Below are positions 5,734-61,189 of a stretch of DNA of 64,000 nucleotides, piece after piece. The stretch is from an uncultured Candidatus Saccharibacteria bacterium (GTDB lineage: Bacteria > Patescibacteriota > JABMPQ01 > JAQVVF01). Location: the NCBI GenBank assembly GCA_964574655.1, contig CAZNOH010000002.1:29620-93619 (forward strand). Reading direction: 5' to 3'. The notes under the pieces were generated by a model, which was given only the letters and a program-made list of their open reading frames with translations, had not been told where the DNA came from and searched no databases. The first letter of the stretch is position 1. The number at the start of each line of letters is the position of its first letter. Position numbers and translations under genes: made by a program.

Positions 5734-6009
5734 TTAAGTCAAAAGTGCGTTTACTTCTTGCTCGCTCATCCAACGATGCAAGGCAAACTTCCGCAAAAAC
5801 CTGTCGAAAATAGCAATGTCAGCTCTTGACAGTCTTTGCCAAAGAGAATCACTGTTTGCAACTTTGACAAGATCAGCGATTGTTCTGATTTGTCGTGTTT
5901 GCAATACGGAAACGGCATCTTCGGAAAGCCCAGAAATTGAAGCCTCTTTCAGAAGAGCTTCTTTTTTATTCGCTCGCAATTCATAACCGATCTGGTCATC
6001 GCTCCACAT
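5734..6009 (-). CDS. hypothetical protein (higher-GC islet with a strong SD)
   Basis: GAGGAGG lies upstream of the ATG, and the stop and start overlap the upstream gene by 14 nt. Confidence 0.45.
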   Translation of the reverse strand: MWSDDQIGYELRANKKEALLKEASISGLSEDAVSVLQTRQIRTIADLVKVANSDSLWQRLSRADIAIFDRFLRKFALHRWMSEQEVNALLT

Positions 6010-6322
6010 CAGTCTCCTCCTCTCTTGCTTCCTTTTCTCTTGCCAATATGGTCATTACTTGATCATATACATTCTTAGCAGCTCTCTGTACATGCGCTGG
6101 CTCAGCTCTCTCAGTAATTTGCTCTCGTGATTGAAAGAAAAAGACGCCATCTTTTACAAACAATCCAACATGAAATCTTCGAAATTTGATCACAAAACCA
6201 TTCTCAGCTAATTCCAAACTGTATTCTTCTTCGCCGATTCTTGAAAGAAATTCCAGAGTAAAAGTAGTTTCATTTGCCACGCAAGCGATAGCAATTGCCA
6301 ATGTTCGCGGTTTCAACTCCAT
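5996..6322 (-). CDS. hypothetical protein (higher-GC islet with a strong SD)
   Basis: AGGAGGAAGG precedes the ATG; it sits in an operon with 5734..6009. Confidence 0.45.
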   Translation of the reverse strand: MELKPRTLAIAIACVANETTFTLEFLSRIGEEEYSLELAENGFVIKFRRFHVGLFVKDGVFFFQSREQITERAEPAHVQRAAKNVYDQVMTILAREKEAREEETDVER

Positions 6323-6413
6323 TCCTTCCTCCTGCGTTTGAAGTAAGTATTATAAATATTAACACAAACAAAAATAATTGTCAAACATAACAAAAAAAGA
6401 CTAATAAATAGTC

Positions 6414-6704
6414 TTAAAGTTCAAATTCTCTCTGGCAAGTCAAGCACTCGAATTTTCGTAAAAAACCAGTTGTGGATCTTGAAACATCAAAATGACATTC
6501 CGGACAGCTTGTACCTTCAAAAAAAATTGGCCTTAGCTGTTCTCCGCATTCATGGCAATAATTGCAACCACTTTCTTGCAGACTGTTATGAAATCCTTCG
6601 CATCCTTGCAATGGAGTTAACCGCGCGTTGATGATTTCTCCGCACTCTGAACAATATTTTAAGCTACCTTGTTCATGCGGTAAACTGCAGGTTGTTGGCA
6701 TTGC
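6414..6704 (-). CDS. Cys-rich zinc-ribbon protein
   Basis: Four or more CxxC pairs (CSECGE, CNYCHECGE, CPECH, CLTCQ). The start is placed at MPTTC, which is preceded by AGGAGGAGG. Confidence 0.5.
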   Translation of the reverse strand, partial: AMPTTCSLPHEQGSLKYCSECGEIINARLTPLQGCEGFHNSLQESGCNYCHECGEQLRPIFFEGTSCPECHFDVSRSTTGFLRKFECLTCQREFEL

Positions 6705-6871
6705 CTCCTCCTTTTCATCCCAGGGTTCTTTTTTAAGTTTATCCAAGATACAAATAAAGTCAATAATAAGCAATCGTTTGCTCAACAAACACATATATTT
6801 AGCTAAATCTAGAGTTGCGAAAAATCAAAAACCATGCTAATATTAAATAGTAAAATAATAAAATCAAAATT

Positions 6872-10657: not shown

Positions 10658-10685
10658 AAAAAACACCCAAGCTTGAGTGTTTTAG
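10658..10685 (-). terminator. intrinsic terminator for the 10696..11442 gene
   Basis: On the minus strand, aaacactcaagcttgggtgttttttt. Confidence 0.55.
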
Positions 10686-10695
10686 TAAAAAAGAA

Positions 10696-11442
10696 CTAGA
10701 TAATATACCACTTTCTCTTGCGCGTGATGACTGATGCTGGCACAAACACTGCCCAGTCAATTGCTCCGACCAAGTCAATCAAAACATATTTTTCTTTCTT
10801 TATCACAATGCAAGGATTATAATCAGAATATTTTGGTGTATGAGGAAGATTGCTTTGAAACCATGTCGCAAGTTTTGCGCGAATATCATCAGGCATTTTT
10901 TTCAGCCTGTAACGATTCAAACTACATTCCTTCTCGCTTTCCTCCGGATCATCAGAATATGCTAGCATCGGTAAATTAAAAGCATCTGCACCAAATCGCC
11001 AATGTCGAATCAGTGTGTCAGCCATGTCTTCAATACGATCTCCATCAATTTCTGTAGACAATTCAACGCTTTTCAACGCCAGCTCCCTGATTGTTCGCTT
11101 TTTGCAAGTTCCTCGCCAATCAACTCCAATTGAGTTAATATTTACAGCTTTTGTATCTGGCTTTTTATCAGCAGAAGTTAATGGCAGAATAAACGCATGC
11201 TCAATCTTGCCAACCATGTATTCTCCAGGAATCAACACATCGTATTTTTTTTTCCCGTCGTAAGAAATAAATGTGCATTCAATTTCGTCAAAAGCAACAA
11301 TTTTAGTCCAAAGAGGAGGCGCAATTCCAGTCATTTGTCCATTACTTACTTCTTGATGACCGCCATAAAGTCTATCAAGAAAACAAATCATCTCTTTTAT
11401 CTCTTCTGGGTCATGTGTGTACTGGCTTGGGCGTCTACGCAT
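10696..11442 (-). CDS. hypothetical protein (higher-GC islet with a strong SD)
   Basis: GAGGAGGAAG precedes the ATG. The GC content is visibly above that of neighbouring genes. Confidence 0.45.
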   Translation of the reverse strand: MRRRPSQYTHDPEEIKEMICFLDRLYGGHQEVSNGQMTGIAPPLWTKIVAFDEIECTFISYDGKKKYDVLIPGEYMVGKIEHAFILPLTSADKKPDTKAVNINSIGVDWRGTCKKRTIRELALKSVELSTEIDGDRIEDMADTLIRHWRFGADAFNLPMLAYSDDPEESEKECSLNRYRLKKMPDDIRAKLATWFQSNLPHTPKYSDYNPCIVIKKEKYVLIDLVGAIDWAVFVPASVITRKRKWYII

Positions 11443-11657
11443 TTCTTCCTCCTCTTGTCTTGGGTTTTAAGGTTCATTGATTTAGAACTCTTAATTATAT
11501 TAATAAATAAGATATTGTCAAGCACATTCCATAATATATTAATTATATTTAGGCTATAATAAAGCAAAATATATAATTTATAACATAATTGTCGGAATAA
11601 TTTGACACAAAAATAATAATAAATTATACTTAAATTGACATAATTAATCTAAATAAT

Positions 11658-17901: not shown

Positions 17902-17929
17902 CTTGACAAATATTACAAATATGCTAATA
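17902..17929 (+). promoter_or_regulatory. sigma70-type promoter TTGACA-N16-TAATAT
   Basis: Consensus -35 and near-consensus -10, about 45 nt upstream of the SD-bearing ORF at 17974. Confidence 0.6.
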
Positions 17930-17973
17930 TGCTCATAGCCATTTAAAAACACAAGACAAGAGGAGGAGGGACT

Positions 17974-18276
17974 ATGACCGCAAATAAAACGCCGACAAAA
18001 TGGCAGTTTTTTAAGCACTGGCTTATTAATTATGCAGTGGGGATGGACATTTTTTTCATCATTATTTCTCTCCCGACAATTGTATTTATTTTGCTTCCGA
18101 CATTTGAAGCACAAGACGGATTCAAGGGGTTTACGCTCATTATCAAGATTCTAGCAAGCATGACCATCGCCTTCTTTTTCATTAACAGTTTACGCAATCT
18201 TTACGATTCCTGGAAATGGTATCTGTATGACATGAATCAAATTCAACCCAAAGAACCAAAGATATCAGCCCTTTAG
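17974..18276 (+). CDS. small two-TM membrane protein (higher-GC islet)
   Basis: Strong SD GAGGAGGAGGG, a hydrophobic core, and a terminator hairpin at 18296-18325. Confidence 0.5.
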   Translation: MTANKTPTKWQFFKHWLINYAVGMDIFFIIISLPTIVFILLPTFEAQDGFKGFTLIIKILASMTIAFFFINSLRNLYDSWKWYLYDMNQIQPKEPKISAL

Positions 18277-18593
18277 TGAATTATTTTGCCCTATTTCAAG
18301 CCTTTTTATGAGGCTTTTTTTAATGTTGAAAACAGCCAAATACTCAAAATCATAATGCCTTATCTAAGCCAAAAAGCATTGATATTTAGCAAATACTATT
18401 GACAAAATAATAAAGGTATGCTAAGATGACAAGCTATAGATTAAGCAATAAAAATAAAACCTTAGTACCTTCTAATTAGTTTTAGCCTCAAATTTGAGAG
18501 AAAGGCAGATCAGATATTAAATATTAGTTATACAGATCTTACGACTTTTTCTCAATTTTGAGGCAACGGCCAATCACGGCCTGGAGGCAGACA

Positions 18594-18653
18594 ATGCGTT
18601 ACGGAATCATCGGGATCCTGTTCGTTTGTGGCTCTTCCAGAATCAACAATTAA
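18594..18653 (+). CDS. candidate 19-aa hydrophobic peptide MRYGIIGILFVCGSSRINN
   Basis: GGAGG lies 6 nt upstream of the ATG, in a 600-bp non-coding region that has a second TTGACA-N17-TAAGAT promoter at 18399-18427 and a long stem at 18485-18563. Confidence 0.25.
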   Translation: MRYGIIGILFVCGSSRINN

Positions 18654-22247: not shown

Positions 22248-22382
22248 AGGACCCTTATACGTCCAATTCACAAAACCTCCATAACATTTCTAATTATATA
22301 TGAAAAATATTGACAGGTCAATTACACTTTGCATTTCTATAAGCTGAAAAAATAAAAAAACCGTTAAAAAACGGTTAGATAA

Positions 22383-22670
22383 TCAACATAGTACAAAATT
22401 CGCATAAAAAGAACCAAAATCAGTATCAACAATTCCATTCTTGCCAAATACCATCTCAACGATCGTTTGAATTGCCTGATGAACTGTTCTGCCCGAGCTG
22501 TCCATGATCAACCAGTCATTCCATTCGTCAATTTTTGCACCATCCCTATCCAAAAGCGTTACACCCATCCGTGATCCGCCATCAGAAGCATTCCATGAAA
22601 TCCTGATTTTTCCGATGTTATTCTTCTTTGCCAGAAGACGATCATGAAGCGTTTGCTTGTTGTCAGACAT
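22383..22670 (-). CDS. hypothetical 95-aa protein (islet; SD AGGAGG)
   Basis: Start at MSDNKQ. The longer track ORF 22383..22859 overlaps the zinc-ribbon gene out of frame and is rejected. Confidence 0.45.
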   Translation of the reverse strand: MSDNKQTLHDRLLAKKNNIGKIRISWNASDGGSRMGVTLLDRDGAKIDEWNDWLIMDSSGRTVHQAIQTIVEMVFGKNGIVDTDFGSFYANFVLC

Positions 22671-22893
22671 TTCGAGCCTCCTGATGCGTGCAACTCGAAA
22701 AGCTTGTGCAACGAGTGCAAACAAGCACTCCCTCTCCGGCGATACTTTCACAATCTGGACAGCACGGCTTTTCGCAAACTGAGCAGACATCAAAACTCTT
22801 GTGGTCTTCAGGAGTAACAATATAATCCTTACCACAGCAAGGACAATGAAATGTGCCAACCTGACCAGGAAGAAGAATCTGTGTCGTCTGCAT
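22663..22893 (-). CDS. Cys-rich zinc-ribbon protein (76 aa)
   Basis: CPCCGK, CSVCEKPCCPDC and CTRC motifs; SD GAAGGAGA. Confidence 0.5.
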   Translation of the reverse strand: MQTTQILLPGQVGTFHCPCCGKDYIVTPEDHKSFDVCSVCEKPCCPDCESIAGEGVLVCTRCTSFSSCTHQEARNV

Positions 22894-23102
22894 TTTGTCT
22901 CCTTCTGCTCTTTAAAGAGCGACCCTGATCAAAAACTATCAAAGAAAACTGTATTTGTCAACGCTTTTCAATATTTCCATCCAAAGATGATAACTAGTAC
23001 ATTTTATTATTCTTCAAAAAAACTTGTAAGTAAATGCTTGCCAAAAATAAAAGGTTATGTTAGTCTAATACATTGCACCTTCACAACCAGAGAGGGAGAA
23101 AC

Positions 23103-23789
23103 ATGGCCAGACAACAAGTTTTGGTTGAGGAATTAGTAAGGCAAGAAGAAACACGATTCATTGATCAAATGGGAGATTTGGAAGCACAAAGATCAGCTGA
23201 AAGAAATGCCGTTGAAGAAATCGAAACAGGCATTCCAAGAATGCGTGAAACTGTTACTGACGCTTTTCCTAGTATTGAAGCGAATGAACTCAATCGGCTT
23301 TTGCAAGAAGCCCGAATGACTCTTCGTCGTAAAGCTGGACTTGAAGCGCCTGATCAAAATGAAGCTGAATCACTGGCTAGGGTTGTAGGCAATCGATTTG
23401 TGCATAAATACATGATGCTTTGGGCAATCTTGATTGTCTTGAGCTTCATCGTCAGTATGATTGGAATTAACTATTTGGTTGAAAATGATAAGTCAGTAGC
23501 AACGGAATCGCAGGTTCCTGTTTCAATCGAAGCTATCCACGTAACAGGTACAAATCAAGTGAACATCAATGTCTATTCCAGCACAGACGCAGATGAAGTG
23601 CTTCTTTATCGCAACACCAGCGTAGTTAAGAAATGGCAAAAGGGCGGAAATTTTTTTCCAGTTGTAGAGTATCATGATCGCGGTACTTACGTGTATTTTG
23701 CCGAAGCGTTTCGCGACGGAGTTAAGACCACCAGTCAACAGGTTCAGGTGGTCTTTGGTCAAAACAACAAGGAGGGACAGCAGAGATGA
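23103..23789 (+). CDS. hypothetical single-TM protein (islet)
   Basis: SD GAGGGAG precedes MARQQ; there is a central TM segment. Confidence 0.5.
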   Translation: MARQQVLVEELVRQEETRFIDQMGDLEAQRSAERNAVEEIETGIPRMRETVTDAFPSIEANELNRLLQEARMTLRRKAGLEAPDQNEAESLARVVGNRFVHKYMMLWAILIVLSFIVSMIGINYLVENDKSVATESQVPVSIEAIHVTGTNQVNINVYSSTDADEVLLYRNTSVVKKWQKGGNFFPVVEYHDRGTYVYFAEAFRDGVKTTSQQVQVVFGQNNKEGQQR

Positions 23790-24058
23790 CATTCTTGTGG
23801 GCATTGCTTGTAAGTGCAATCGGAGCAATTAGTTTCAATTTCGGAAAACGTGAAACAAGCTATTGGCTAGGTTATGGAATTAAATTTGCTTGCTATCTGG
23901 CACTCGTCTGGCTAATCCAATATCATGTTCTGACAACCTTCGATGCAATGCGAACAATAACCTGGATTCTTGTATTGATGGGCATTAGCAATGGACTGAT
24001 GTACTCTTTGAAGCAACAGAAGACGGTCCAGTTACTGGCGGAATCATCGGAGCACTAG
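23786..24058 (+). CDS. small membrane protein (islet)
   Basis: Three hydrophobic segments; its stop overlaps the next start. Confidence 0.45.
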   Translation: MTFLWALLVSAIGAISFNFGKRETSYWLGYGIKFACYLALVWLIQYHVLTTFDAMRTITWILVLMGISNGLMYSLKQQKTVQLLAESSEH

Positions 24059-24141
24059 TTTCCGTTGTTCTCCTACTTTGCTTTAGTATCAACAGCTGTG
24101 AGTGTGCTCGTGCTGAAGATCTCTACAAAACAGTTGCAACA

Positions 24142-30406: not shown

Positions 30407-30408
30407 AA

Positions 30409-46327: not shown

Positions 46328-46469
46328 TCGTGCGAATATCGCGAATGGCTTTGCCAACAAAAAACACGAATAAATTGAAAAACACGCTTCTCATGAAGCG
46401 TGTTTTATTTTGTATAAGCATAAATTTAAACACAAAAAAACTCGTCTAGCGAGTTATGAAAATGAACTG

Positions 46470-46766
46470 TTATTTAGCCAATGGATTCACAATCTCCATT
46501 TCAACTCCATCATTGATAACAGCAGAAAGTACAATGTCACGAATTTGATGATGGACTCTGCCACTGTCTTGTAAAAGAGCAGCCATTTTCAAAACTGCCA
46601 CATGATTTGGGTGTAATACACGATTCTCATCGCGACAATGTCTGACAAATTCAATGAAGGCAATAGAATTCTGGTGAACCAATCTTCTCAATGAATTCAT
46701 GATTATTGGCAAAAAATTCTTGCCAACTGTTGCGCCATTTTTCAAAGTCACCATCTCAATGCTCAT
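46470..46766 (-). CDS. hypothetical 98-aa protein (islet; SD AAGGAGGG)
   Basis: Terminator on the minus strand at 46436-46458; divergent from 46895..47302. Confidence 0.5.
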   Translation of the reverse strand: MSIEMVTLKNGATVGKNFLPIIMNSLRRLVHQNSIAFIEFVRHCRDENRVLHPNHVAVLKMAALLQDSGRVHHQIRDIVLSAVINDGVEMEIVNPLAK

Positions 46767-46894
46767 CTTACCCTCCTTGTCTCTGTTGCATCATGACTGC
46801 TTATAAAATAGCACGATGACTAATTAAGTCAATATTATTGACACAAAGTCAATATAATAGTAATCTAACAAGCTCAAAGACAAGGGAGGAAAAG

Positions 46895-47302
46895 ATGGCG
46901 AGAAAACAGCAAGAATTGACTTTTAAGCAAATTAGAAAGGTACTGGAGGACCTGAGGGGCTTAACACCAGAAATCATTGATAGAATAATAATTTTTAGCC
47001 AAGATTATGTTTCGCTTAGAATGAGAAATGAACTTTTGAATTTACACATGGTCGCTCGATGTTTTCCTCAAAATACAGCAAAGGCTGTAAACATTATGTT
47101 GGATGCACTGGACATAGGAACAATCACAGAATTTACTGATGGATTTGTAGAAGCGCATCAGAAAGCATTTGCACTGCGAAAAAAGTCAAAAATTCCGCAT
47201 GATCCTTTATTGCTTTCAATCGAATTGCTAGAATACTGCTCTCCATTTATTCAAACTACTAGGAATAAGAATAAAAGAATGTTCACTTTAAAAGACCTAT
47301 AA
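46895..47302 (+). CDS. hypothetical protein (islet; SD AGGGAGG; start at MARKQQ)
   Basis: A palindromic operator-like site ATTATTGACacaaaGTCAATAtAAT lies in the divergent promoter region at 46825-46852. Confidence 0.5.
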   Translation: MARKQQELTFKQIRKVLEDLRGLTPEIIDRIIIFSQDYVSLRMRNELLNLHMVARCFPQNTAKAVNIMLDALDIGTITEFTDGFVEAHQKAFALRKKSKIPHDPLLLSIELLEYCSPFIQTTRNKNKRMFTLKDL

Positions 47303-47319
47303 GGCCTTTTTTTATTTGG

Positions 47320-48849: not shown

Positions 48850-48980
48850 GTTTCAATATTAAAAATTAAAAAGTCAAAATGAAAAATAACGTAACGACGA
48901 CATTGACAGCCTGAAATTATTATGCTATATATATTATAATAATGTAAAGTCGAGGAAAAGACAAAGGGGAGAAGGAAAAG

Positions 48981-49400
48981 ATGGAACTAGAAGAAGGAGA
49001 AGAAATGGCAGAAAGCAGGATTGAAAAGCTTCTTGAAATTGCACTGGAAATCGTGGGCTGTTACATGTATATCCATAAAGTGGAAGAAATAGACATTGAT
49101 CAAGGCCCTGGATCTCGGATTGTAGAGCAGTGGGTACGCATGCACTTTTGCACAAAAAAAGATATGAGAGAACGCTTCGAAGACACACCAAACGCACAAA
49201 ACGCACAAAACACACCAAACGCACACACTTATTTTTTGAAGGTTGATTTTGCAGAAATTATATTTCAACAGGCAATTCTGAAGTTGCTCGAGCTCGGTAC
49301 TGGACAAAAATTTCAACAAATTTCGCACCATGATTGTCGGACCGTATACATCCGCCAAGATTTCTTGGATGAATACAATCAATTATCCAAAAAGCCATAA
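48981..49400 (+). CDS. hypothetical acidic protein (islet; SD GGGGAGAAGGA)
   Basis: Preferred over the overlapping minus-strand ORFs because of its SD and the terminator tcgcactcatgtgcga plus a T-run at 49418-49445. It contains a CAAACGCACA simple repeat. Confidence 0.5.
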   Translation: MELEEGEEMAESRIEKLLEIALEIVGCYMYIHKVEEIDIDQGPGSRIVEQWVRMHFCTKKDMRERFEDTPNAQNAQNTPNAHTYFLKVDFAEIIFQQAILKLLELGTGQKFQQISHHDCRTVYIRQDFLDEYNQLSKKP

Positions 49401-49538
49401 AAACAATAGATCTTTTTTCGCACTCATGTGCGATTTTTTTATAGCTTAAATCATTAAGTATAGACAAAAACAATTTATTATGTTATCTTAAAAAGTAATG
49501 TTCTTTCACAAGCGGTGAAAGCCGCAAGGAGGAGAGGA

Positions 49539-50075
49539 ATGAAGAAATTCATGATTTTGTTTGCACTTTTCTTCTGCGCATGTGCAACTTCGTCAACTCC
49601 ATCAGTGAAATATGTCACAGTCGAAGATGTTGCACCAGAATATACAGCCTTCAAGCGTGAAAAGCCGATCAATCCCGTCTCAATATGGCCAGATGCAAAT
49701 TTGCTCTCGAATGATCGCGAGCCACAAATTATCAAAGAATGGACGAGCAAAGCAAGCGAAAGTGAACAGCATGATGCAGAGTTCAAAGGGCCACTTTGGT
49801 TCAAGCAACTCAGTGAGCAAGCAAATGCATTGAAAGCAAATGCCGGCTCATGCTTGATGGTGTACTATATGGGAAAACTGCAATCAAAAGACAATAAAGG
49901 CGATTGGTGGAGAGATGCACTTATGATTCAAGGCGTTCCTTCATGGCTAGTCATTGTCGGCAGGCAACTATATACGCTGACAGATGAAAATCCCGAAATG
50001 ATCATGGTTCAGCTCGTAGGCAATTGTGTCCATCTGAAAACCGTAGCATTTCATCATGGCGGAGGATATCATTAA
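49539..50075 (+). CDS. putative lipoprotein (islet)
   Basis: SD AAGGAGGAGAGG; MKKFMILFALFFCAC signal peptide with a lipobox. Confidence 0.55.
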   Translation: MKKFMILFALFFCACATSSTPSVKYVTVEDVAPEYTAFKREKPINPVSIWPDANLLSNDREPQIIKEWTSKASESEQHDAEFKGPLWFKQLSEQANALKANAGSCLMVYYMGKLQSKDNKGDWWRDALMIQGVPSWLVIVGRQLYTLTDENPEMIMVQLVGNCVHLKTVAFHHGGGYH

Positions 50076-50094
50076 CGTTCTTTTTCTACACGCT

Positions 50095-50562
50095 CTAGCG
50101 TGTTTTTTTATTACTCGCCTTTCTAAATTCAAGCACAATCATTATAATTATGCCTATAATTATATAAAAATCAGCAAGATTTAGAACGCTTAAATTAAAT
50201 AAATGAATATAATCAACAACAAAGCCTCTATATATTCTATCAATTAAGTTAGAAAAAGCGCCAGCAATCACTAGCATTAAAGAAAAAAGAATCAAAAAAT
50301 TCATATTTTTCAACTCTTGTTGAAATTTTTGCAGTAAAAAGTATAATACTAAAAATATTACAAGATACATAATCACTTTTGGCATTGGAAAGCCAAAAGC
50401 AATGCCAGAATTCTGGAATTGAGCAATTCCAAAATTATTGTTTAATACAAAAAAACCATCTTGAGGAAGATAGTTTACAACAATAAATTTACAAAATTGA
50501 TCAAAAAAAACTAAAACCAAGCCAATTATAATCAAATATAAAACCTTAATTTTGTTTTTCAT
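50095..50562 (-). CDS. lspA: lipoprotein signal peptidase II
   Basis: NSGIAFG, NLIDR and FNLAD motifs; four TM segments. Confidence 0.85.
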   Translation of the reverse strand: MKNKIKVLYLIIIGLVLVFFDQFCKFIVVNYLPQDGFFVLNNNFGIAQFQNSGIAFGFPMPKVIMYLVIFLVLYFLLQKFQQELKNMNFLILFSLMLVIAGAFSNLIDRIYRGFVVDYIHLFNLSVLNLADFYIIIGIIIMIVLEFRKASNKKTR

Positions 50563-50936: not shown

Positions 50937-52013
50937 TTGTATTATATTTAATATCTAATACATTAAGTTTACCACTAAATTAAATAAAAATCCAGTGAAA
51001 TAAAAAAAAACAGGCGCCAGAGGGCGCCCGTTAAAAATATTTAATGGCGCTCTGGCACCCGTTGGAGTCATATCTTACCGCCTTTCTCCTATTTGTGTTT
51101 AGCACATAGGATAAGAGCAGGATTTAGCGATATAACTCATACAAGGTGCACAAGAAGCCTGATAGTTCTTCAATGTGTCTTTTCTCTCACCGTCCTTCTG
51201 GCTTTTGATCTATTTTGGATCTTGGCCTTAATTTTTGTTTTTGATTTTTTGACCCCAATTGATTTGGAGTATAAAGTACAATACGGGTGTATCAGCACCC
51301 TTAACGGACAGAGAGAGCGTGCCTCACGCGAATACTCACTGATTTCACTAATTGCCACTAATGCGATTAGAATTAGTGTTAATTAGTGAAATTAGTGTAG
51401 ATTAATGTGAAGGACGCTCTTTCCGTACGGTCGCAGTAAAATAGATTTTAATTAAGATATCGTTAATCAGCATAAGTTGCCCAAAGCTGACCAAATGGCA
51501 GAGCCATTGAAGATTAGCGCGGGTAAAAGAAGAGGAAATATACAATAGTTCATCTTATAAACATATATTACCACTCAGGATAGCAAAAGAAATGTGTTCT
51601 TTTGGCTCGTCTATGAATCATTTTAGCTTTTTTCTATGTAAATCAAGATTCTCCACTCTGCAACACGTCAAAGAGCAAACTTTTCTTCAATTACAATATA
51701 AACTAGGCAGAAAGCCTAATCTGATTCTGACAAGCTCAAATTTTGAAAAAACGTTTTTTGTTTTTGTTTCTACATATATTATAGCATGAAATAACAATTT
51801 GTTCAAACCTTGTGATAAATAATAATTAGGGCTTTAATAAAGCCAATATGCGAGTTATCAACAGTGAACAATAAAGTTATACACAGGCATGTTAATAACT
51901 ATTAAGCAGTTTTGAACAACATAGTACCAGCTTATCCACAGTCTTTTGAACAATTTAATAACAAAAAAATCCAGATAACTGGATTAAAAAGATCTAATAT
52001 TGAATTTTTAAGA

Positions 52014-52253
52014 TCAATCTCCGCCAAAACGAGGCTCAGTGCCAAGCGGACAGATACCTCGCTCTTTTGCCATTTTCAAAAGTTCATAATCAGCAGGCGA
52101 GATCAGCACTACAACAGATTTGGTGTGTTCGTCATAAGACGTGATGACAACAGCACAACAACTTTTGTCTCGTATCGAGCCGATCTGTTCTAGAAGAAAG
52201 CTTGCTTGACGAAAGCTTGCTAGTTCATCAAGTCCAATTCTTTTTTCCTGCAT
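52014..52253 (-). CDS. Phd/YefM-like antitoxin-fold protein (islet)
   Basis: SCCAVVITSYDEHTKSVVVLISPADYELL matches the Phd/YefM beta-hairpin pattern; SD GAGGAGG; start placed at MQEKRIG. Confidence 0.5.
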   Translation of the reverse strand: MQEKRIGLDELASFRQASFLLEQIGSIRDKSCCAVVITSYDEHTKSVVVLISPADYELLKMAKERGICPLGTEPRFGGD

Positions 52254-52273
52254 TTCTCGTCCTCCTCTCGTGG

Positions 52274-52624
52274 CTAGCAAAGCAAAATATAATCCAAATC
52301 AGTAATCGGAGCAGCACACATTTCCTTCTCTCGCAATTCATCGCCAGTAACATAAACATAGCTGCCAGATTCCAACGTACTGACAATACGGGCTGGATTT
52401 TGAATAACATCAATAAAATCAATCTCAATTACATTGCAGACTCGTTTAGAATCTGCCCAAAAATGTTTCAAGCGATCCAAGGCAAATGCAGTAATAATCA
52501 CTCCGAGCTGTTTTTCTCCATCCACAAGAACAGCAACATAGCCACAATCAAGATAATAGTAGGCGCAGGTTGGATCAGCTAGAAAATCAGAATACAAAAG
52601 CTCTTTTGCAACAGCTGAAATCAT
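52274..52624 (-). CDS. hypothetical 116-aa protein between two Phd-like genes
   Basis: SD AGGAAGG. Confidence 0.45.
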   Translation of the reverse strand: MISAVAKELLYSDFLADPTCAYYYLDCGYVAVLVDGEKQLGVIITAFALDRLKHFWADSKRVCNVIEIDFIDVIQNPARIVSTLESGSYVYVTGDELREKEMCAAPITDLDYILLC

Positions 52625-52656
52625 TATTCGCCTTCCTTTTTGCCATCAGCACCTCG

Positions 52657-52860
52657 CTATAAGGCAGAAAGCGGAATTGTTATGGGAATGCCAGCTATGC
52701 CGAGATCTCTCAAAATATCTGGCGAAACTATTCCTGCTATAGCCTTGCTATGCTTTTTTATAACAATGCAGTCCGTTCGTTCTGCAGTACTGATTTCATC
52801 AAGTAGCGAATCAAGATCTCCTGGCAACGATTCAATATCATAAGAAACCTGTTCTAGCAT
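52657..52860 (-). CDS. second Phd/YefM-like small protein
   Basis: RTDCIVIKKHSKAIAGIVSPDILRDL; SD AGGAGG precedes MLEQV. Confidence 0.45.
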   Translation of the reverse strand: MLEQVSYDIESLPGDLDSLLDEISTAERTDCIVIKKHSKAIAGIVSPDILRDLGIAGIPITIPLSAL

Positions 52861-52877
52861 TGTCTTCCTCCTTTTTC

Positions 52878-53159
52878 CTAGAGTAGCATCTTTTCTGTCA
52901 GCCAATTTTCAAATCTTGAAAACAGAAAAGGAAATACAACAAAAAAAATAATTATTGACAGTAAAAAAGAATAAGGAATTTTTGCTACAATATCAAAGTC
53001 AAAGATTTCCCATAATAAAATAATAGTCACCGAAGATAAAGACAAAGAAGCAAAAAAACTTAAGAGATAGTTAACTGCTAGTATAGAAATATCAATTTTA
53101 CCGGATTCAGAATATAGCACAAAATCACGCCACCACTTTTTTTGCTTTTGCTCAGGCAT
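52878..53159 (-). CDS. small two-TM membrane protein (islet)
   Basis: SD GAGGAGG. Confidence 0.45.
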   Translation of the reverse strand: MPEQKQKKWWRDFVLYSESGKIDISILAVNYLLSFFASLSLSSVTIILLWEIFDFDIVAKIPYSFLLSIIIFFVVFPFLFSRFENWLTEKMLL

Positions 53160-53230
53160 TACGTCCTCCTCTTTTTTTTCCGTTTAGATTGTCAAAGAAC
53201 AAATAATAATATCCAAATTAAATAATAATG

Positions 53231-55933
53231 TCAATTCTTTAAAAACTTTTCAACCTCATTGCCGATTTCCTTGATTTCGTAATGTCCAACGCCAACTCTA
53301 GGCAAAGCTTGAAGAAATTTTGCGCCATAATCAGTATTTTCTAATCTTAAATCAAGCATCACAACAACGCCTTTGTCAGTCTTTGATCTAATCAATCTGC
53401 CAAATCCTTGTTTGAAAGTCAAAATTGCACGAGGAATAGAGTATTGCATGAACTTATTTTGATATTGTGAAGATCTTGCTTCAAAGATTGGCTCGCTTGG
53501 AACTTCAAAAGGAATTTTGACAATTACCAGACAAGACAAATTATCTCCAGGAATATCAACGCCTTCCCAGAAAGATGCCGTTCCAAGTAGTATTGTATTT
53601 TTATCTTTTTTAAAAGCATTTAGTAATTTCATTTTACCTCCAGTCACGCCTTGCGCTAAAACTTTCACACCTTCTTGTCGCAATTCATAAGCCAATTTTT
53701 TATAAACATGCCTGATTGCCGAGTAAGATGTAAAAAGAGCCATAGTTCTGCCCTTTAACCTTTTTCCAATATCAATTAATACATCGCAAGTCTTATTATT
53801 AAAATCATTATGATTTGGCAATGGAAAATCAGTTGGCAAAATTATTGTTGACTGCTTTTCGTATTCATAATGAGAGGGGATTTGAATTTTATCAAAAGTA
53901 TCATCTAATCCTAATTTTTTAGCAAAATAATCAAAGCCTTGATCAGTAGTTAACGTGGCTGAAGATAAAATAACAGTTTCTTTCTTAGTAAACAAGCTCT
54001 CTTTCAAATAGCCATCAATATTCAACGGCGCAAAAAACAAATTAATCTTTTCTTCTCTGAAAGTCAGCCAATAGATTCCATTTTCTGTTGGATTAATAAT
54101 GATTTCTTTTAGCAAATCTTTTGTCTCTCTATTTTCCATAATCAAGCCATCAAGATCATAGAAAATTTCTTGCCAAGCTATATCTGTTGATGCGTAATTA
54201 ATTTTCAAATGATCCAATAGCTCAACCAAGCCTTTTTCTACAATTTCAAACAACAAAACAAGATTATTAATTGAGCCAGTCACTTTCCACCATTCACCAT
54301 AATTTCTTACTCTGTCAGTCAATAATAATTTTAGCCGGCCATTATAAAAATCCTGAAAAGCATTATTCTTAATAAAAATATTCAAAATGCCAAAAAACAG
54401 ATCAGTTTGATTCGTCAGTTTTTCTAAATTATGCAAAATTTTATCTTTTAATTCAGAATTATCTTTCTTACTAATCTTATTTATAATTGCTTTAACATTT
54501 TTCAAAAATTCATCGATTTTTTCATTTGAAACAAATTTAGTTAGTTGAGAAGTCATACTATCTTCAAGATGATGAGCTTCATCAATGATCAAGTGCTTAT
54601 AATCCAAATAATTTTCATCATCAGAGTTCAAAGCCAGCAAAGCATGATTAATAATTACAATGTCTGCAGTTTTTGCTTCTTCTTTTGCTCTATAATAAAA
54701 ACATTTCTTTTGATTTGGACATTTTCTCTTCAAGCAAAAATTAGAATTGCAGACCAAGCTTCGTTTTATCCAATCCTCATGAAAATTTAAAGCTAATTCT
54801 CCTAAAATTCCTTCTTTAGTTTCTGGAAGCCATAATAAAATTTTAATCAAAACTGTTAATTCATCTTCATTTAAATCTTTTTTAGACCTAAAGTCTTCAA
54901 ATCTTCTCAAACAAAGATAATTTTCTCTGCCAACTAGCTTTTTTGCTTTGAAATTAAAATTTACTGCTTCAGATGCAACTGGAATATCTTTATAAAGCAA
55001 TTGATCCTGAAGATTCAAGGTATGTGTTGAAATAACAATTTTTTCATTATTTGCCTTGGCAAAATAGATAGCTGGCAATAAATAGGCTAGTGACTTGCCA
55101 ACGCCAGGTCCTGCCTCAACAACCAAATGTTTTTGACCTAAAAAAGTCTGGCTCACTTTTTTCATCATCTCAACTTGATTTGGCCGGAATTCAAAATTCT
55201 TGAAAACCTTGCTTAATTTTCCTTGATTCTCAAACATCTTTTCAATCTTATCTAATTCAAACTCAGGAATAACATCTTTTTTAGCTTGCAAAGTTTTTTT
55301 GGATAGTTCGTCAACGACTTTATGAACTTTAAGAACTTTATGAACTTTTAACTTGCTCGCAAACAGGTCTTTCAAGCTCCATTCATGTCTAGCTAGTATT
55401 TTTTCAATATCTTTAATTATCGTATTATCTAATCCATTAATTTTATCAAGCAAAAACAAAAATAGCTGATGAGTGGCTAAAACATCGCCCATTGCGCGAT
55501 GGCTTTGCAAATTTTTTATTTTCAAAAAAGAAACCAATGATTCAAGACTATGTGATCCAAGACTCGGCAGTAAAACAGTTGCTAATTTCCAGGTATCATA
55601 AGATTTATTTGTTAAATCTATTCCTTTGGCTTTCAAATAGCCCAAATCAAAAGAAATATTATGTCCAACAATAGGAAAATCGTTGACAAATTTAATTAAA
55701 TTATCTTGGACTTGATGCAAAAGAGGAGCATCTTTAACAATATCTTCTGTAATTCCAGTTATTGCCTTAATTATTTTTGGAATATCAGTTTTTGGATTAA
55801 CAAATGTCTGAAATTCATCAATTATTTTGTCATCCTGAAATTTAATTACCGCAATCTCAATAATTTCGCCAAGCGTGGGAGAAAGATCAGTTACTTCTAT
55901 ATCGAGGCAAACGTAAGTTTTTAGTTTAAGCAT
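53231..55933 (-). CDS. dinG: DinG-family ATP-dependent helicase fused to an N-terminal DnaQ-like 3'-5' exonuclease
   Basis: CLDIEVTDL exonuclease motif I, Walker A, the DEAHHLED box and C-terminal helicase motifs. Confidence 0.85.
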   Translation of the reverse strand: MLKLKTYVCLDIEVTDLSPTLGEIIEIAVIKFQDDKIIDEFQTFVNPKTDIPKIIKAITGITEDIVKDAPLLHQVQDNLIKFVNDFPIVGHNISFDLGYLKAKGIDLTNKSYDTWKLATVLLPSLGSHSLESLVSFLKIKNLQSHRAMGDVLATHQLFLFLLDKINGLDNTIIKDIEKILARHEWSLKDLFASKLKVHKVLKVHKVVDELSKKTLQAKKDVIPEFELDKIEKMFENQGKLSKVFKNFEFRPNQVEMMKKVSQTFLGQKHLVVEAGPGVGKSLAYLLPAIYFAKANNEKIVISTHTLNLQDQLLYKDIPVASEAVNFNFKAKKLVGRENYLCLRRFEDFRSKKDLNEDELTVLIKILLWLPETKEGILGELALNFHEDWIKRSLVCNSNFCLKRKCPNQKKCFYYRAKEEAKTADIVIINHALLALNSDDENYLDYKHLIIDEAHHLEDSMTSQLTKFVSNEKIDEFLKNVKAIINKISKKDNSELKDKILHNLEKLTNQTDLFFGILNIFIKNNAFQDFYNGRLKLLLTDRVRNYGEWWKVTGSINNLVLLFEIVEKGLVELLDHLKINYASTDIAWQEIFYDLDGLIMENRETKDLLKEIIINPTENGIYWLTFREEKINLFFAPLNIDGYLKESLFTKKETVILSSATLTTDQGFDYFAKKLGLDDTFDKIQIPSHYEYEKQSTIILPTDFPLPNHNDFNNKTCDVLIDIGKRLKGRTMALFTSYSAIRHVYKKLAYELRQEGVKVLAQGVTGGKMKLLNAFKKDKNTILLGTASFWEGVDIPGDNLSCLVIVKIPFEVPSEPIFEARSSQYQNKFMQYSIPRAILTFKQGFGRLIRSKTDKGVVVMLDLRLENTDYGAKFLQALPRVGVGHYEIKEIGNEVEKFLKN

Positions 55934-56088
55934 AAAAAATAGTGATTGAATATTGAAAATTGAATATTAAGATTAAAAAACGTTAAACTAATCTTAACAC
56001 ATAAATATTCAATATTTAATATTCAATATTTATCGTATAAAAAAAGCAGAAATAAATCTGCTAAAACAAAAAGGACAAAAACTATTAT

Positions 56089-56706
56089 TTATGGACGCGC
56101 GTAATCATCAAAGATCAGGCCTAGAAGAATAAAATCATTTTGCATAGACCCATATGATTCATCGATCAAATCAAAATTAGGGTTGTCAGAAAGAAGTTCG
56201 GTTCTGATTTTTTCCAAAAGAAGATAGACTCGTTGCATTCTATATAACTTGTCTTCATCATAAGAATCAACAAAATCATCAAGTCTTTCGAGTCTGTCAA
56301 TTAAGGCATTGTATTTATCTGCAAGAGAATGGAGTTTAAAGCAATTCTTGGATTTTTGATCGTCAGCTCTCTTTTTTGCCTTTTCATATTTTCTTTTCTC
56401 AGAATTATAGATCCAGCGAGTAGAAAGTCCGAGAATCAGTGCAAGTGCCCAAAAAACAATACTAAACTGTAACAGGTCAATTTCTTTTCTAAAAGGATGA
56501 AAAAATTCAAATGCCAGATATACGCCCATACAAAATGCAAAGAAAATCCAATAATTTCTTTTTGACTTTTTTGGGTTAAAGTATAAAGAGCGCAATTCAG
56601 AAACTGCAGAATTATATAGATTGGAAAGCTCGCGCACATAATTTGTAACGTCAAATTTTTTCACGCATAGCATACTTAATTTGCTTTCGTTGATTTCTGC
56701 GCTCAT
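56089..56706 (-). CDS. hypothetical two-TM protein (islet; SD AGGAGGGAG)
   Basis: Flanked by near-identical hairpins aaaaagcagaaaNaaatctgctaa at 56049-56075 and 56798-56822. Confidence 0.45.
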   Translation of the reverse strand: MSAEINESKLSMLCVKKFDVTNYVRELSNLYNSAVSELRSLYFNPKKSKRNYWIFFAFCMGVYLAFEFFHPFRKEIDLLQFSIVFWALALILGLSTRWIYNSEKRKYEKAKKRADDQKSKNCFKLHSLADKYNALIDRLERLDDFVDSYDEDKLYRMQRVYLLLEKIRTELLSDNPNFDLIDESYGSMQNDFILLGLIFDDYARP

Positions 56707-56855
56707 CTTCTCCCTCCTCTTGGTTGTGCAAGGAACAATATAATAGATTACACTTTGCGATAATTATTGTCAATATTAGCCTAATATTTCTAAAAAATAA
56801 AAAAGCAGAAAAATCTGCTAATATTTAATATTTAATTCTTAATTCTTAATAATAG

Positions 56856-58518: not shown

Positions 58519-60134
58519 TTCACAATTATCTCAGCATCAATAAAATTACCAGACCACTTTCTATTCTTTGTTATCCTAATCGCGCTTAAAGATTTTGCCA
58601 GACTATCCACGCTCGCATTATCGTCGCCGCCAAAATTAGAAGATAATTTTAATATAGAATCAATTGAAATATAGATTAGCTGTTCAGATTTGTTTTTTTC
58701 AAATTCCTTAAAATCAGTAACGCTATTTAATTTATCACCAGATTGTAAATTTTCCAATATCTTTTCACTGCTGAATATTACCAATTTATCATCTTTCACA
58801 AAATATCCAAGATCAAATGTTTTTTTTGGCAAATTTATTACTTTATAAGTGGTATTCTTGTTTTTTCTAGCAACAAAACTGACTTCTTTATCATTATTCA
58901 AATATTTTCCAATTAATTTTGCAACAGATCCTTCAATGCTATTCATTTTTTCTTGCGCATTATTTTTATCTTTTAAATCAAGCATCAAAGCTAGTCTGAT
59001 TTTTTCATTTGTAAAATCAGGCGCTAAATAAAATCCATATTGGGAGCTAAACAAATCTAATATTTCATTCAAATCAATCCCATATTCTAATTTTGCGCCA
59101 CGAGAGATTAAAGCAAATTCTGCGCTTGGATCAGGTGAATTGCCAGCAACCAAGCTTGTGAGTATTGGCTTCAAGCTTGATCCTTCCATATAGAAAGCAG
59201 CATCTGAAGCAACAAAGTCAGCAAATTTTGGTTTTATCTTTTTATTATCGCTGATCTTGAAAAGTTCGGGCATGTAGATTTTTGCCAAAATCTTGTCATC
59301 AGTTGCTGAAAATCTTACTCCAGCATAATATTTTCCGCCAATTTCTTTTAATTTTCCTAGCACATCATCGTCTAATTTCAAATTAGACTTCATGAAGACC
59401 TTCAACAGCTCCAAAACATCGCCATAAACAAAGACAACGCCGTCTTGATGATTCAATTTATTTTTTGATTTTATATATTTTCTATCAAAAGCCAAAGCTT
59501 TATTGTTACCTAATTTTGTATCAATCATTTTCTTTAAACCATCAGGAAATTCTGAAATCAGTAAATAATTATCATAAATTGCATAAGAAAGGCTTTTTTT
59601 TCTCGTAATGTTTACTATTTGCTTGCCTCTAAAGTCTTCCTTATCAACAACATAGCCCTTTTTTTCTATGCTATCAGTAAAAACATTCAAAAAGTTGTTT
59701 AACAAGTCTTGATTCTTAATCTCAACTAGAAAAATCTTTGAAAAGCGGTCATTTGTCACCCTAATATTACCAATTGCAATTTTTTGTCCTAACCAGCTAT
59801 AAAAAGTATCTTCATCAATTTTTAAATCATCTGGAGTTATTCCAGCAAGCACCAAACTTCGCAAATAATCACTAAATGCTTTATCATTACCCATTCTTTT
59901 GGCGATTTCTGTTAATTTCATGTTTTGCTTTGAGTCTTTGTTGATATCAACGATTGCAAAAGAGATCAAATCATTCGGGACAAAAGATTCAATGCTTTTC
60001 TTGGCAATATTCAAAGAATACATTGAAAAAATAATTCCCAAGCCAAAAACAAGCACCAGAAATATTGCAATTGTGATGATTAGCTTTTTATTACGTTTTT
60101 GTTTTTTTAAATTCTCTTTTCGTTTTTGAGACAT
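58515..60134 (-). CDS. large N-terminally anchored protein of unknown function, paralog 2
   Basis: Same architecture as 56856..58418, in tandem on the same strand. Confidence 0.55.
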   Translation of the reverse strand: MSQKRKENLKKQKRNKKLIITIAIFLVLVFGLGIIFSMYSLNIAKKSIESFVPNDLISFAIVDINKDSKQNMKLTEIAKRMGNDKAFSDYLRSLVLAGITPDDLKIDEDTFYSWLGQKIAIGNIRVTNDRFSKIFLVEIKNQDLLNNFLNVFTDSIEKKGYVVDKEDFRGKQIVNITRKKSLSYAIYDNYLLISEFPDGLKKMIDTKLGNNKALAFDRKYIKSKNKLNHQDGVVFVYGDVLELLKVFMKSNLKLDDDVLGKLKEIGGKYYAGVRFSATDDKILAKIYMPELFKISDNKKIKPKFADFVASDAAFYMEGSSLKPILTSLVAGNSPDPSAEFALISRGAKLEYGIDLNEILDLFSSQYGFYLAPDFTNEKIRLALMLDLKDKNNAQEKMNSIEGSVAKLIGKYLNNDKEVSFVARKNKNTTYKVINLPKKTFDLGYFVKDDKLVIFSSEKILENLQSGDKLNSVTDFKEFEKNKSEQLIYISIDSILKLSSNFGGDDNASVDSLAKSLSAIRITKNRKWSGNFIDAEIIVK

Positions 60135-60139
60135 GGATA

Positions 60140-60275
60140 AAATATCTAATTTCTAATTCATAATTTCTATTGAATGTCTAATATCCCAATTTCTAATTCT
60201 AGCTATCGGCAAATAGCTTTAGAAATTAGTAATTCAATAGAAATTAGAAATTTAAAATTAGATATTCTAATTATA
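60140..60275. repeat. about 130-bp imperfect palindrome (AATTTCTAATT repeats) upstream of paralog 2
   Basis: ctaatttctaattcataatttctattgaat...attcaatagaaattagaaatttaaaattag. Confidence 0.5.
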
Positions 60276-60406
60276 GCCTACAAAAATAATCCTCGCAAAT
60301 GCCAGCGAAAAATTGACAAAAACTATATTATTGTATAAGATAATCAACTGTCAAATTTTTAGCCGCCAAAAAACAAACCAGGGCGGCTTAAATCGCGGAG
60401 GCGAAC

Positions 60407-61189
60407 ATGAATAGGCAGGAAATCGTCGATCTTTTGCAAACAAAAGAATGGTTCAGAAATACGTCGCCGGAAATTCAGAATTTGCTGCTAAATCTGCCAG
60501 GATCAGACATTGATAACGGAAAAAATGATTGCACTGGATTTCTTGTAGATCTCGCAAAGCGACCGGAATCAGGTGGTGGAATTCGATATTTGCAAATCGC
60601 CCAAGTCATGATTCCGGACGCCCGACCAATTTTCGGCATCATCGTCGTCTTCGAAGTCCAGAATTTGAAGAGCAATGCTATCTATCATTATCAATACTTT
60701 TCTTGGCGCCATGGCCCAGCTTCTGGAGTCAAAGGCTTGCTATTGATTGAAGATGAGAGAAGTGGAAGAATTACCCATCTCGTGGTCATGCGTGGCTACA
60801 AGAACGGACCTGCCTGCATTGAATTCGATTGCATCGGTGGTTTTGCTGAAGGCAAGGGTGTTTCTGACGACATTGCTCGAGAATTAAGAGAAGAGCTTGG
60901 GCTTCCTGAAATTCCGCCCATCAAGAGAAGAATTGAACTAGGACGTCTTGCAACAGATGCAGGAATGACCAACAATCGACCTTCACTCTATGCTACCATC
61001 ATCTCTTGTGATTCGGCTTCCGCGATTCATGAAGGAGAATCTGCCAATCCAGATCCTTGGGAGCCTCGCTCTGGTCCGATCATCGTGCCGGTTGAGCAAC
61101 TTTCTGAGCTCATCAGACATAATGATGATGCTTATTTTCACGCCTGCCTGTCTCGCTTGGCAGCCAATGGCATCAATTTGTTTGTGTAA
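60407..61189 (+). CDS. NUDIX-domain protein (islet; SD GGAGG)
   Basis: Nudix box GGFAEGKGVSDDIARELREELGL. Confidence 0.6.
   Translation: MNRQEIVDLLQTKEWFRNTSPEIQNLLLNLPGSDIDNGKNDCTGFLVDLAKRPESGGGIRYLQIAQVMIPDARPIFGIIVVFEVQNLKSNAIYHYQYFSWRHGPASGVKGLLLIEDERSGRITHLVVMRGYKNGPACIEFDCIGGFAEGKGVSDDIARELREELGLPEIPPIKRRIELGRLATDAGMTNNRPSLYATIISCDSASAIHEGESANPDPWEPRSGPIIVPVEQLSELIRHNDDAYFHACLSRLAANGINLFV

Follow-up and report, generated by a model that had tools for sequence, protein, structure and literature searches.

Orphan gene cassettes with Shine–Dalgarno-led starts in the largely Shine–Dalgarno-less core genome of a Parcubacteria-type bacterium

The DNA analysed here is a 64,000-nt stretch (the window) of contig CAZNOH010000002.1, from a Patescibacteria (Parcubacteria-type) metagenome-assembled genome (MAG) of 34% GC. 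Scattered among its housekeeping genes are ∼14 small cassettes (U1 to U14, including a decayed one; Table 1), whose genes are led by strong Shine–Dalgarno (SD) sequences. We put at roughly 0.55 the probability that these cassettes are moron-like accessory units in a gene pool of the Patescibacteria, translated by a ribosome that is still SD-competent, within a core that is SD-less and partly leaderless. In this model, each cassette brings a near-consensus sigma-70 promoter, a purine-rich and T-free leader of 28–65 nt, a strong SD, one to four short open reading frames (ORFs) and an intrinsic terminator, and sits between the operons of a core genome that seems largely to have given up SD-dependent initiation. 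The full signal set would be needed because such an insertion site offers no usable signals of its own. The host 16S rRNA would keep a canonical anti-SD that reads the cassette SDs, whilst the cassettes would circulate in a less AT-biased mobile gene pool of the Patescibacteria (by phage, other elements or transformation). At fixed intergenic sites, cassettes come and go, decay or are exchanged, and they diverge much faster than core genes. Since each has its own promoter, SD and terminator, the cassettes resemble modules added to the genome rather than new molecular machinery.

RESULTS

Start signals separate the cassettes from the core

A first-pass annotation of the window had listed nine SD-bearing islets, and all nine are present, each with at least one ORF that has GGAGG, GGAGA or GGGAG 4–10 nt before its ATG. 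Several of the listed ORF starts were wrong and were moved to an SD-led ATG (marked in Table 1), and two units were added: islet 4 has a further operon on its minus strand, and a decayed cassette lies at 18399-18653. Across the window, 18 ORFs of at least 60 aa open with an ATG that has GGAGG 4–10 nt before it, whereas 100 first-order Markov simulations yielded 0.07 such ORFs on average and never more than 1. Of the 18, one or two fall within a core gene or on the strand opposite one.

The annotation had proposed a check of anti-SD complementarity, which we ran on the window starts by computing the duplex energy of the 20 nt before each called ORF start against CACCUCCUUU. The energies are bimodal: 19 islet genes fall between −8.2 and −12.4 kcal/mol, and 42 of the 44 core genes between −3.4 and +2.9 kcal/mol. 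The description of the core as SD-less is thus upheld, with 42/44 genes above −3.5 kcal/mol, and genes internal to core operons likewise have no SD. Both exceptions, 656-1024 and 13404-13874, score −9.3 kcal/mol. Core identities were confirmed by Pfam for FtsH, TilS, S1, GyrA, a NagZ-like GH3 protein, PilB/C/M/N, pilins, LysM-CHAP, ComM, LspA, DksA, DinG, DUF3352, L19, S15 and PNPase. The ribosomal-protein genes L19, S15 and S1 are core-like, having neither an SD nor a GC shift; together with the pilus machinery, they also have no −35 box and a core-like GC3.

The junctions gyrA/U3 and DUF3352/U14/rpsO were recovered in the independent Logan assemblies L001 and L033, and the islets are therefore not assembly chimeras. 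The six islet proteins that were queried against sequence representatives (see below) all had 100% identity matches in one 251-kb NCBI contig and in Logan assemblies. The cluster-member listing also placed the 23103-23789 protein in that NCBI contig and in Logan and the 17974-18276 protein in Logan only, and held no identical copy of the 6414-6701 protein from either source.

Promoters, leaders and composition

The cassettes are also set apart by the region further upstream. The −35 box is a perfect TTGACA for 9 of 13 cassette first genes, and has at least five of six matches for 12 of the 13. As a sequence pattern, it is followed at 16–18 nt by a TAnnnT box that ends 28–65 nt before the ATG. 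In contrast, a perfect TTGACA precedes 1 of 33 core first genes, and the mean number of −35 matches is 5.5 of 6 for cassettes and 3.9 for these core genes (p = 8e-6). The share of T at positions −30 to −1 is 10% in islets compared with 37% in core genes; the cassette leaders are purine-rich and nearly T-free at −17 to −1, and several share AGACAAG just 5′ of the SD. No SD in the window reaches GGAGGT. Core upstream regions are A/T-rich and G-depleted, without a position-specific motif, and the initiation regions are less structured in the core (−4.4 versus −7.4 kcal/mol, p = 0.012).

Part of the core may dispense with a leader altogether. Of 36 window genes, 8 have a TAnn[AT]T hexamer that ends at −7 or −8, as do 30 of 138 genes of relatives, where the baseline is ∼6 per position; in both sets, TAnnAT is far commoner at 7–8 nt before the ATG than at other offsets. 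Examples of this −10-like hexamer precede the genes at 6872, 27246, 43398, 47320, 4254-5576, 12886-13170, 17011-17697 and 39628. Its enrichment at this distance in core first genes suggests that a share of core mRNAs may be leaderless.

The intrinsic terminators noted in the first-pass annotation were confirmed as a hairpin with a T-run after U2, U3, U4, U8, U10, U11, U12 and U13, those of U1, U6, U7, U9 and U14 being judged by eye. The islets are also compositionally atypical, as claimed, with a GC content of 0.40 compared with 0.33 in the core and a GC3 of 0.37 compared with 0.27 (p = 4e-7). The shift extends over all codon positions (GC1/GC2/GC3 of 0.48/0.36/0.37 in islets and 0.41/0.31/0.27 in the core). 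Nearly all amino acids show a raised use of G/C-ending codons, and the islet proteins contain less K, N and I and more R, P, W and C.

Cassettes diverge and turn over faster than their neighbours

The GyrA of the window is 88% identical to that of MAG STF1_73 (JAQVVF01; locus L002), 76% to that of CSMAG_2461 (JAUWOX01; L003) and 62–64% to those of many Komeilibacteria/Parcubacteria MAGs. Synteny was compared using L002 and L056 (both STF1_73) and L055, which are collinear with the window over 6.4–26.8 kb and 36.4–59.5 kb. Core genes are 81–90% identical to those of relatives at the protein level, compared with 37–60% for the cassettes conserved in position. Thus, U1 stands at the same place in L002 (150-437) with 58% amino acid identity and the SD gaaGGAGGag, as does U4 (8795-9094) with 37% identity and its SD retained. 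In L055 and L056, U8 is in place at 50% identity with a conserved SD, and the U9 orthologue (P0129) is 42–46% identical with the SD GGAAAGGAGGaaaag. The 116-aa gene of U12 is 60% identical to an L056 gene which has the strong SD AAAGGAGGAAAG, although its partner genes differ between genomes. Conservation of the divergent U8/U9 intergenic region is limited to the SDs and promoter boxes. Overall, orthologues of 37–60% identity retain GGAGG at the canonical 5–8 nt spacing amid diverged intergenic DNA. Rapid evolution is not exclusive to the SD-led class, since an SD-less 151-aa ORF without a Pfam match (7558-8013, plus strand) shares just 53% identity with its orthologue in STF1_73.

Presence/absence polymorphism is borne out as well. 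Four segments are absent from STF1_73: 10567-13248, with U3, an SD-less TrmB-like gene and a HEPN/MNT pair (missing from both L002 and L003); 22324-25780, with U6 and U7; 48873-50119, with U10 and U11; and 55943-56798, with U13. In L055 and L056 alike, the U10 site is empty and U11 and U13 are absent. The gyrA/tRNA-Leu site holds 2.7 kb in the window and a different SD-led ORF of 112 aa in L002, and is empty in CSMAG_2461. An SD-led operon orthologous to U7 occupies the same tRNA-Arg/TrmB/Wzy_C position in L028 and L029. Islet 4 lies at the same position (tRNA-His/tRNA-Arg...TrmB/tRNA-Ala/Wzy_C) in the CSMAG_2461-type genome, where its SDs are strong, AAGGAGGTGA among them, and it shows a GC excess. 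Being absent from STF1_73 yet in place in this more distant genome, islet 4 is old and was lost in STF1_73.

The coupling of these features extends across the clade. In 24 related loci (∼430 kb), strict SD criteria gave 25 SD-led ORFs compared with 337 clearly SD-less ORFs. The median length was 114 aa for the SD-led and 300 aa for the SD-less ORFs, and the GC content relative to the locus was +6.8 and −0.3 percentage points, respectively (p = 1e-8). Among the 25 SD-led ORFs, Pfam matched just 2 (one to a DUF, the other to a pilin motif), whereas 34 families were matched among 40 size-matched SD-less controls. The most extreme GC excess among SD-led genes is that of two tandem type IV pilin genes in L010 (19230-20130), which have identical SD leaders, 60–62% GC and a GC3 of ∼0.8 in a locus of 35.5% GC.

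Cassette proteins are mostly orphans

None of the 20 islet proteins has a significant match in Pfam, NCBIfam or PADLOC (the PADLOC and NCBIfam scan covered 16 of the 20), and there were two marginal PHROG matches (E about 0.008–0.009). Toxin–antitoxin and defence families gave no PADLOC match and no Pfam match above threshold among the cassette proteins, and the two U2 proteins have no Pfam or PHROG match above threshold. In an all-against-all BLASTP comparison, paralogy among islets was limited to one marginal match. An exhaustive profile search of 1.84 billion representatives returned just 1–5 weak clusters for three of the six islet proteins queried, and no homologue for the 139-aa protein of U10 or the 178-aa protein of U11. 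The 260-aa protein of U14 belongs to a large unnamed family of >100 clusters, without a Pfam match. Its AF2 model (pLDDT 93) matches ADP-ribose pyrophosphatases in Foldseek (E = 2e-11), so that its predicted fold is Nudix. A concatenated query of nine small islet proteins gave no match, which is weak evidence because the result probably reflects the limit of the word-index candidate step. The view of the islet genes as mostly orphan, self-contained units thus stands, their products including zinc ribbons, small membrane proteins and a lipoprotein.

One family reaches beyond the Patescibacteria. At 23786-25641, the ORFs of 90 and 499 aa belong to a single gene, intact homologues of which have 630–646 aa; upstream of 24142, the frame stays open for a further 51 codons, none of them a start codon. 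The frameshift near 23990 could reflect a pseudogene, a sequencing error or programmed shifting. This 638-aa family has full-length homologues at 25% identity in cultured Lactobacillus and Enterococcus phages, and is also found on IMG/VR contigs. In phage vB_Lcr_AB1, the homologue sits in an early accessory region. The suggested phage link is therefore supported for this one islet family, in the form of distant members in cultured phages. A fold search with the 638-aa protein gave no convincing PDB match (TM below 0.2).

DISCUSSION

Comparison with phage morons and tRNA-adjacent islets

The closest parallel is with phage morons, the independent accretion units of lambdoid and other phages (review PMC3594210; Hendrix/Juhala concept). 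Like morons, the cassettes are single short ORFs or operons with their own sigma-70-type promoter and factor-independent terminator, inserted in a collinear backbone, unlike their flanks in composition and patchy among relatives. However, the backbone here is a cellular core chromosome (the neighbourhoods of gyrA, dinG, comM and rpsO), with no phage genes nearby; the cassettes are GC-richer, not AT-richer, than this backbone, and they differ from it in initiation style. Neither Pfam nor PHROG revealed a phage hallmark near the cassettes, and the neighbours are housekeeping genes; the cassettes are therefore moron-like in their working, but not classifiable as phage morons. A resemblance to tRNA-adjacent genomic islets and ORFans lies in the atypical composition, the short, orphan, fast-evolving genes and the indel polymorphism. 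In contrast to such islets, the cassettes come without an integrase or recombinase, mostly measure <1.3 kb, lie away from tRNA genes at most sites and include several old residents.

Several observations weigh against an origin as mobile accessory units. Among the window ORFs scanned there is no integrase, recombinase, transposase or phage structural gene, and the border repeats described below are short or imperfect, and were seen for two units. Apart from the 638-aa family, no islet protein matched sequenced phages or plasmids, and viral scans gave no relative of the 248-aa protein of U3. Among the distant 638-aa family members of other lineages, the majority are not SD-led, and an SD with GC excess was accordingly rejected as a universal trait of that family. 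At least four islets are conserved in position across relatives with 76–88% GyrA identity and are thus long-term residents. Their orthologues keep the SD and usually the GC excess, which argues against simple un-ameliorated foreign DNA; in L055 and L056, this excess is small. Two readings thus find no support: a purely recent origin, in view of these old residents, and the donor of a different lineage suggested by the first-pass annotation, in that every named homologue of an islet protein comes from a Patescibacteria MAG and, outside the 638-aa family, sequenced phages and plasmids gave no match.

Alternative explanations

Positional conservation could instead mean that the cassettes form a native, specialised regulon of vertically inherited, lineage-specific genes, for example those for the surface or host-interaction proteins of an episymbiont. 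Strong canonical signals would then serve high or conditional expression, and the GC excess would be maintained by selection or biased gene conversion and would not stem from a foreign origin. SD-led orthologues do hold their positions in STF1_73 and CSMAG_2461-type genomes, the GC excess follows the host background (52–53% in a 41–44% genome, 42–45% in a 32–38% genome), numerous products are membrane or secreted proteins and named homologues are restricted to Patescibacteria. We nevertheless consider this explanation unlikely, if worth keeping in view. The closest relative lacks about half of the islets, and has unrelated SD-led ORFs in place of some of them. The three codon positions shift together with amino acid usage, which looks mutational, unlike codon selection; moreover, the highly expressed native genes for L19, S15 and S1 show neither an SD nor a GC shift.

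A second group of explanations concerns the ribosome. Bacteroidia have ‘SD-blind’ ribosomes with an SD-led rpsU (PMC9976891, PMC13000453), and the window resembles SD-poor Bacteroidia, and groups B, C and X of GeneMarkS-2, in its SD-less majority with A/T-rich upstream regions and its minority of strong SDs. The Pribnow-like hexamer ending 7–8 nt before some ATGs may be a further parallel, with leaderless group C. However, whereas the strong SD of Bacteroidia stands on a regulatory target, rpsU, here strong SDs stand on about a quarter of the window genes, all accessory or orphan, and unlike in group C, genes internal to core operons also have no SD. It is conceivable, though rather improbable, that the 16S rRNA here has no functional or accessible anti-SD, or one masked as in Bacteroidia, and that the SD-led cassettes are a separately translated class, which would depend on a ribosome subpopulation, on a modified 3′ tail that matches the extended AAGACAAG-GGAGG leader or on a factor from a mobile element. 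If true, this would amount to a private translation channel for accessory genes of the cell or its parasites.

Outright loss of the anti-SD is a related case. The SD-like motifs would then be non-functional baggage of import, or would be read by another mechanism, such as an S1-bound purine-rich enhancer or a ribosome subpopulation as in the bS21-lacking ribosomes of Flavobacterium. Among Parcubacteria, the motif CCTCCT is present in only 48% of 16S genes (Tsurumaki et al. 2022, PMC9297842), a study which covers 16S features only and does not describe classes of SD-bearing genes. The window genome falls in the same phylum-level group, and its essentially SD-free core, operon-internal genes included, fits little reliance on SD pairing. 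The absence of GGAGGT and the shared AGACAAG 5′ of the SD also point this way. Set against this is the canonical spacing of GGAGG in orthologues of 37–60% identity whose flanking non-coding DNA has diverged, from which we infer that the ribosome still reads these SDs. Unlike in the Parcubacteria that lack an anti-SD, the conserved SDs would thus argue for a working anti-SD in this lineage. Relatives also have extended canonical complements such as AAGGAGGTGA, as SD:anti-SD pairing predicts, and we judge loss of the anti-SD to be very improbable. A 16S 3′ tail ending in ...CACCUCCUU would fit a still SD-competent ribosome, and a tail complementary to AAGACAAGGAGG would mean extended pairing. 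There are no rRNA genes in the window or in the 50+ related loci, and no rplA region was found in the window and related loci; a universal 16S motif matched just unrelated IMG/VR contigs.

The combination of a consensus promoter, a strong SD and a terminator is the classical signature of strong expression units, and SD, promoter and G/C-ending codons might together be expression optimisation that marks highly expressed genes. The SD-led pilin genes of L010, with their high GC3, would agree with this. We think it highly improbable, given that L19, S15, S1 and the pilus machinery are core-like in SD, −35 box and GC3, that amino acid composition has shifted too and that the cassettes are dispensable between close relatives; the GC shift as a codon bias of high expression was rejected because ribosomal-protein genes resemble the core. 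Finally, there is next to no chance that chimeric MAG assembly, mis-called starts or chance purine runs created the pattern: the contig is metagenome-assembled and several starts needed correction, but the junctions and identical proteins recur in independent assemblies, the SD-led ORFs far exceed the simulated number and orthologues from other MAGs have the same features.

Significance

The first-pass annotation regarded two initiation styles in one replicon as unusual, which goes too far. Many genomes are handled with dual start models in GeneMarkS-2, and SD matches stand before ∼3% of genes in Bacteroides ovatus (10.1101/193490); mixed start signals within a single genome are established. 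What is new is that SD, consensus promoter, GC excess and orphan fast-turnover genes are tightly coupled across a Parcubacteria clade, a pattern that concerns genome architecture and not a new molecular system. The −35 consensus, the T-free purine leader and GGAGG together form a sequence mark of the flexible, orphan gene set in this clade, and the marked genes are the likeliest candidates for host- or phage-interaction functions where most such genes cannot be annotated. Start finders with a single model will mis-start the SD-led cassette genes. The pattern also bears on why Parcubacteria retain or lose the anti-SD, and the canonical signals are probably usable for heterologous expression in these bacteria.

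Cassette catalogue and neighbouring features

Table 1. The cassettes of the window, numbered from its first letter; r marks ORFs whose given start is that after refinement
Unit	Span	Strand	Promoter, SD and terminator	ORFs and products
U1	6392..6763	−	promoter TTGACT-16-TAAACT at 6763-6736; SD aaaaGGAGGAGGca; weak hairpin and T-run after ORF	6414-6701 r, 95-aa multi-CxxC zinc-ribbon protein
U2	5717..6384	−	promoter TTGACA-17-TAATAT at 6384-6356; separate GGAGG for each ORF; terminator 5735-5717	5996-6322 (108 aa); 5734-6009 (91 aa)
U3	10660..11521	−	perfect promoter TTGACA-16-TATAAT at 11521-11494; SD AAGAGGAGGaagaa; terminator 10683-10660	10696-11442, 248 aa, five weak homologue clusters only
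U4	17903..18316	+	promoter TTGACA-16-TAATAT; SD AAGAGGAGGAGGG; terminator 18298-18316	17974-18276, 100-aa membrane protein; unit adjoins tRNA-Arg
Decayed cassette	18399..18653	+	promoter TTGACA-17-TAAGAT; ∼160-nt leader, then GGAGG and ATG	19 codons left
U6	22350..22961	−	promoter TTGACA-17-TAGTTT at 22961-22933; SDs GAAGGAGA (ORF 1) and cAGGAGGc (ORF 2); hairpin and T-run near 22352-22378	ORF 1, 22663-22893 r, 76-aa Cys-rich zinc ribbon; ORF 2, 22383-22670 r, 95 aa
U7	23040..25685	+	SDs agagaGGGAGA (ORF 1) and AAGGAGGG (ORF 2); terminator ∼25660-25685	ORF 1, 23103-23789 r, 228 aa, one transmembrane helix; ORF 2, 23786-24058 and 24142-25641, one gene for a ∼638-aa membrane protein, frameshift near 23990
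U8	46439..46832	−	promoter 46832-46805; SD cAAGGAGGGtaag; terminator 46455-46439	46470-46766, 98 aa
U9	46838..47315	+	promoter TTGACA-17-TAATCT; SD AAGACAAGGGAGGaaaag; T-run hairpin after ORF	46895-47302 r, 135 aa; unit divergent from U8
U10	48903..49433	+	TTGACA near 48903 upstream of TATAAT; weaker SD AAAGGGGAGAAGGaaaag; terminator 49418-49433	48981-49400, 139 aa
U11	49461..50103	+	promoter TAGACA-17-TATCTT; SD cAAGGAGGAGAGGa; terminator 50088-50103	49539-50075 r, 178-aa protein with lipoprotein-type signal peptide
U12	51968..53234	−	promoter TTGACA-17-TATTAT at 53234-53206; weak SD AAGGAAGG (ORF 3); terminator 51985-51968	four-gene operon: 52878-53159 (93-aa membrane protein); 52657-52860 r (67 aa); 52274-52624 (116 aa); 52014-52253 r (79 aa)
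U13	56045..56773	−	promoter TTGACA-17-TAATCT at 56773-56745; SD AAGAGGAGGGAG; terminator 56062-56045	56089-56706, 205-aa membrane protein
U14	60313..61235	+	promoter TTGACA-17-TAAGAT; hairpin in leader; SD cgcGGAGGcgaac	60407-61189, 260-aa divergent Nudix-fold protein (modelled), 46% GC

Three cassette sites adjoin tRNA genes (tRNA-Leu at 13250, tRNA-Arg at 17766 and tRNA-Arg at 22079). The synteny-defined borders of the 2.7-kb segment with U3 carry an imperfect 25-nt direct repeat (10575-10599 and 13243-13267; 76% identical, 10 nt exact, TTTAAAATGC), the right copy of which overlaps the 3′ end of tRNA-Leu. This is a putative att-like signature without an integrase; at the other cassette sites, no att-type direct repeat overlapping a tRNA 3′ end was found. 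U13 is flanked by direct repeats of ∼50 nt with 73% identity (56011-56064 and 56796-56856), each of which includes a terminator hairpin, as would be left by an insertion that duplicated the terminator at its target.

The variable segment that holds U3 also contains an SD-less, very AT-rich pair of HEPN-like (NTase_sub_bind) and MNT (Pol-beta NTase) genes at 12506-13170 on the minus strand. The pair is a toxin–antitoxin-type module and the only such pair seen; its place within a variable segment means that not every accessory gene is SD-led.

At the site of the decayed cassette, L002 has an intact 125-aa lipoprotein ORF of 52% GC, and alignment indicates a deletion of ∼390 bp in the window. The leader at 18399-18566 (plus strand) is ∼95% identical to L002, far above coding DNA, with paired hairpins and no match in Rfam. 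It may be a riboswitch or small RNA that controlled the lipoprotein cassette now deleted in the window genome. A second conserved non-coding stretch of ∼320 nt (51001-51320, minus strand) is 91% identical to L055/L056, compared with ∼80% for neighbouring coding sequences, and ends in a strong terminator (51032-51009). Its folding z-score against shuffles is −6.3, and Rfam returned no match; the stretch is probably a structured RNA that has not been described.

Short tandem repeats of the CGTTCCGA type form two GC-rich arrays (25690-25790 and 25950-26040) on either side of a 150-nt segment conserved in L002; the arrays lie just upstream of the TrmB-like gene at 26057. Within the U10 ORF, a 9-nt tandem repeat occurs four times at 49180-49225 and encodes the low-complexity stretch TPNAQNAQNTPNAH. 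The window gene at 656-1024, one of the two SD exceptions in the core, encodes a bAvd-like 23S_rRNA_IVP protein and has a G-rich SD-like motif. L056 contains the core of a diversity-generating retroelement (bAvd and reverse transcriptase, 107-2063), where the arrangement of the genes differs from that in the window.

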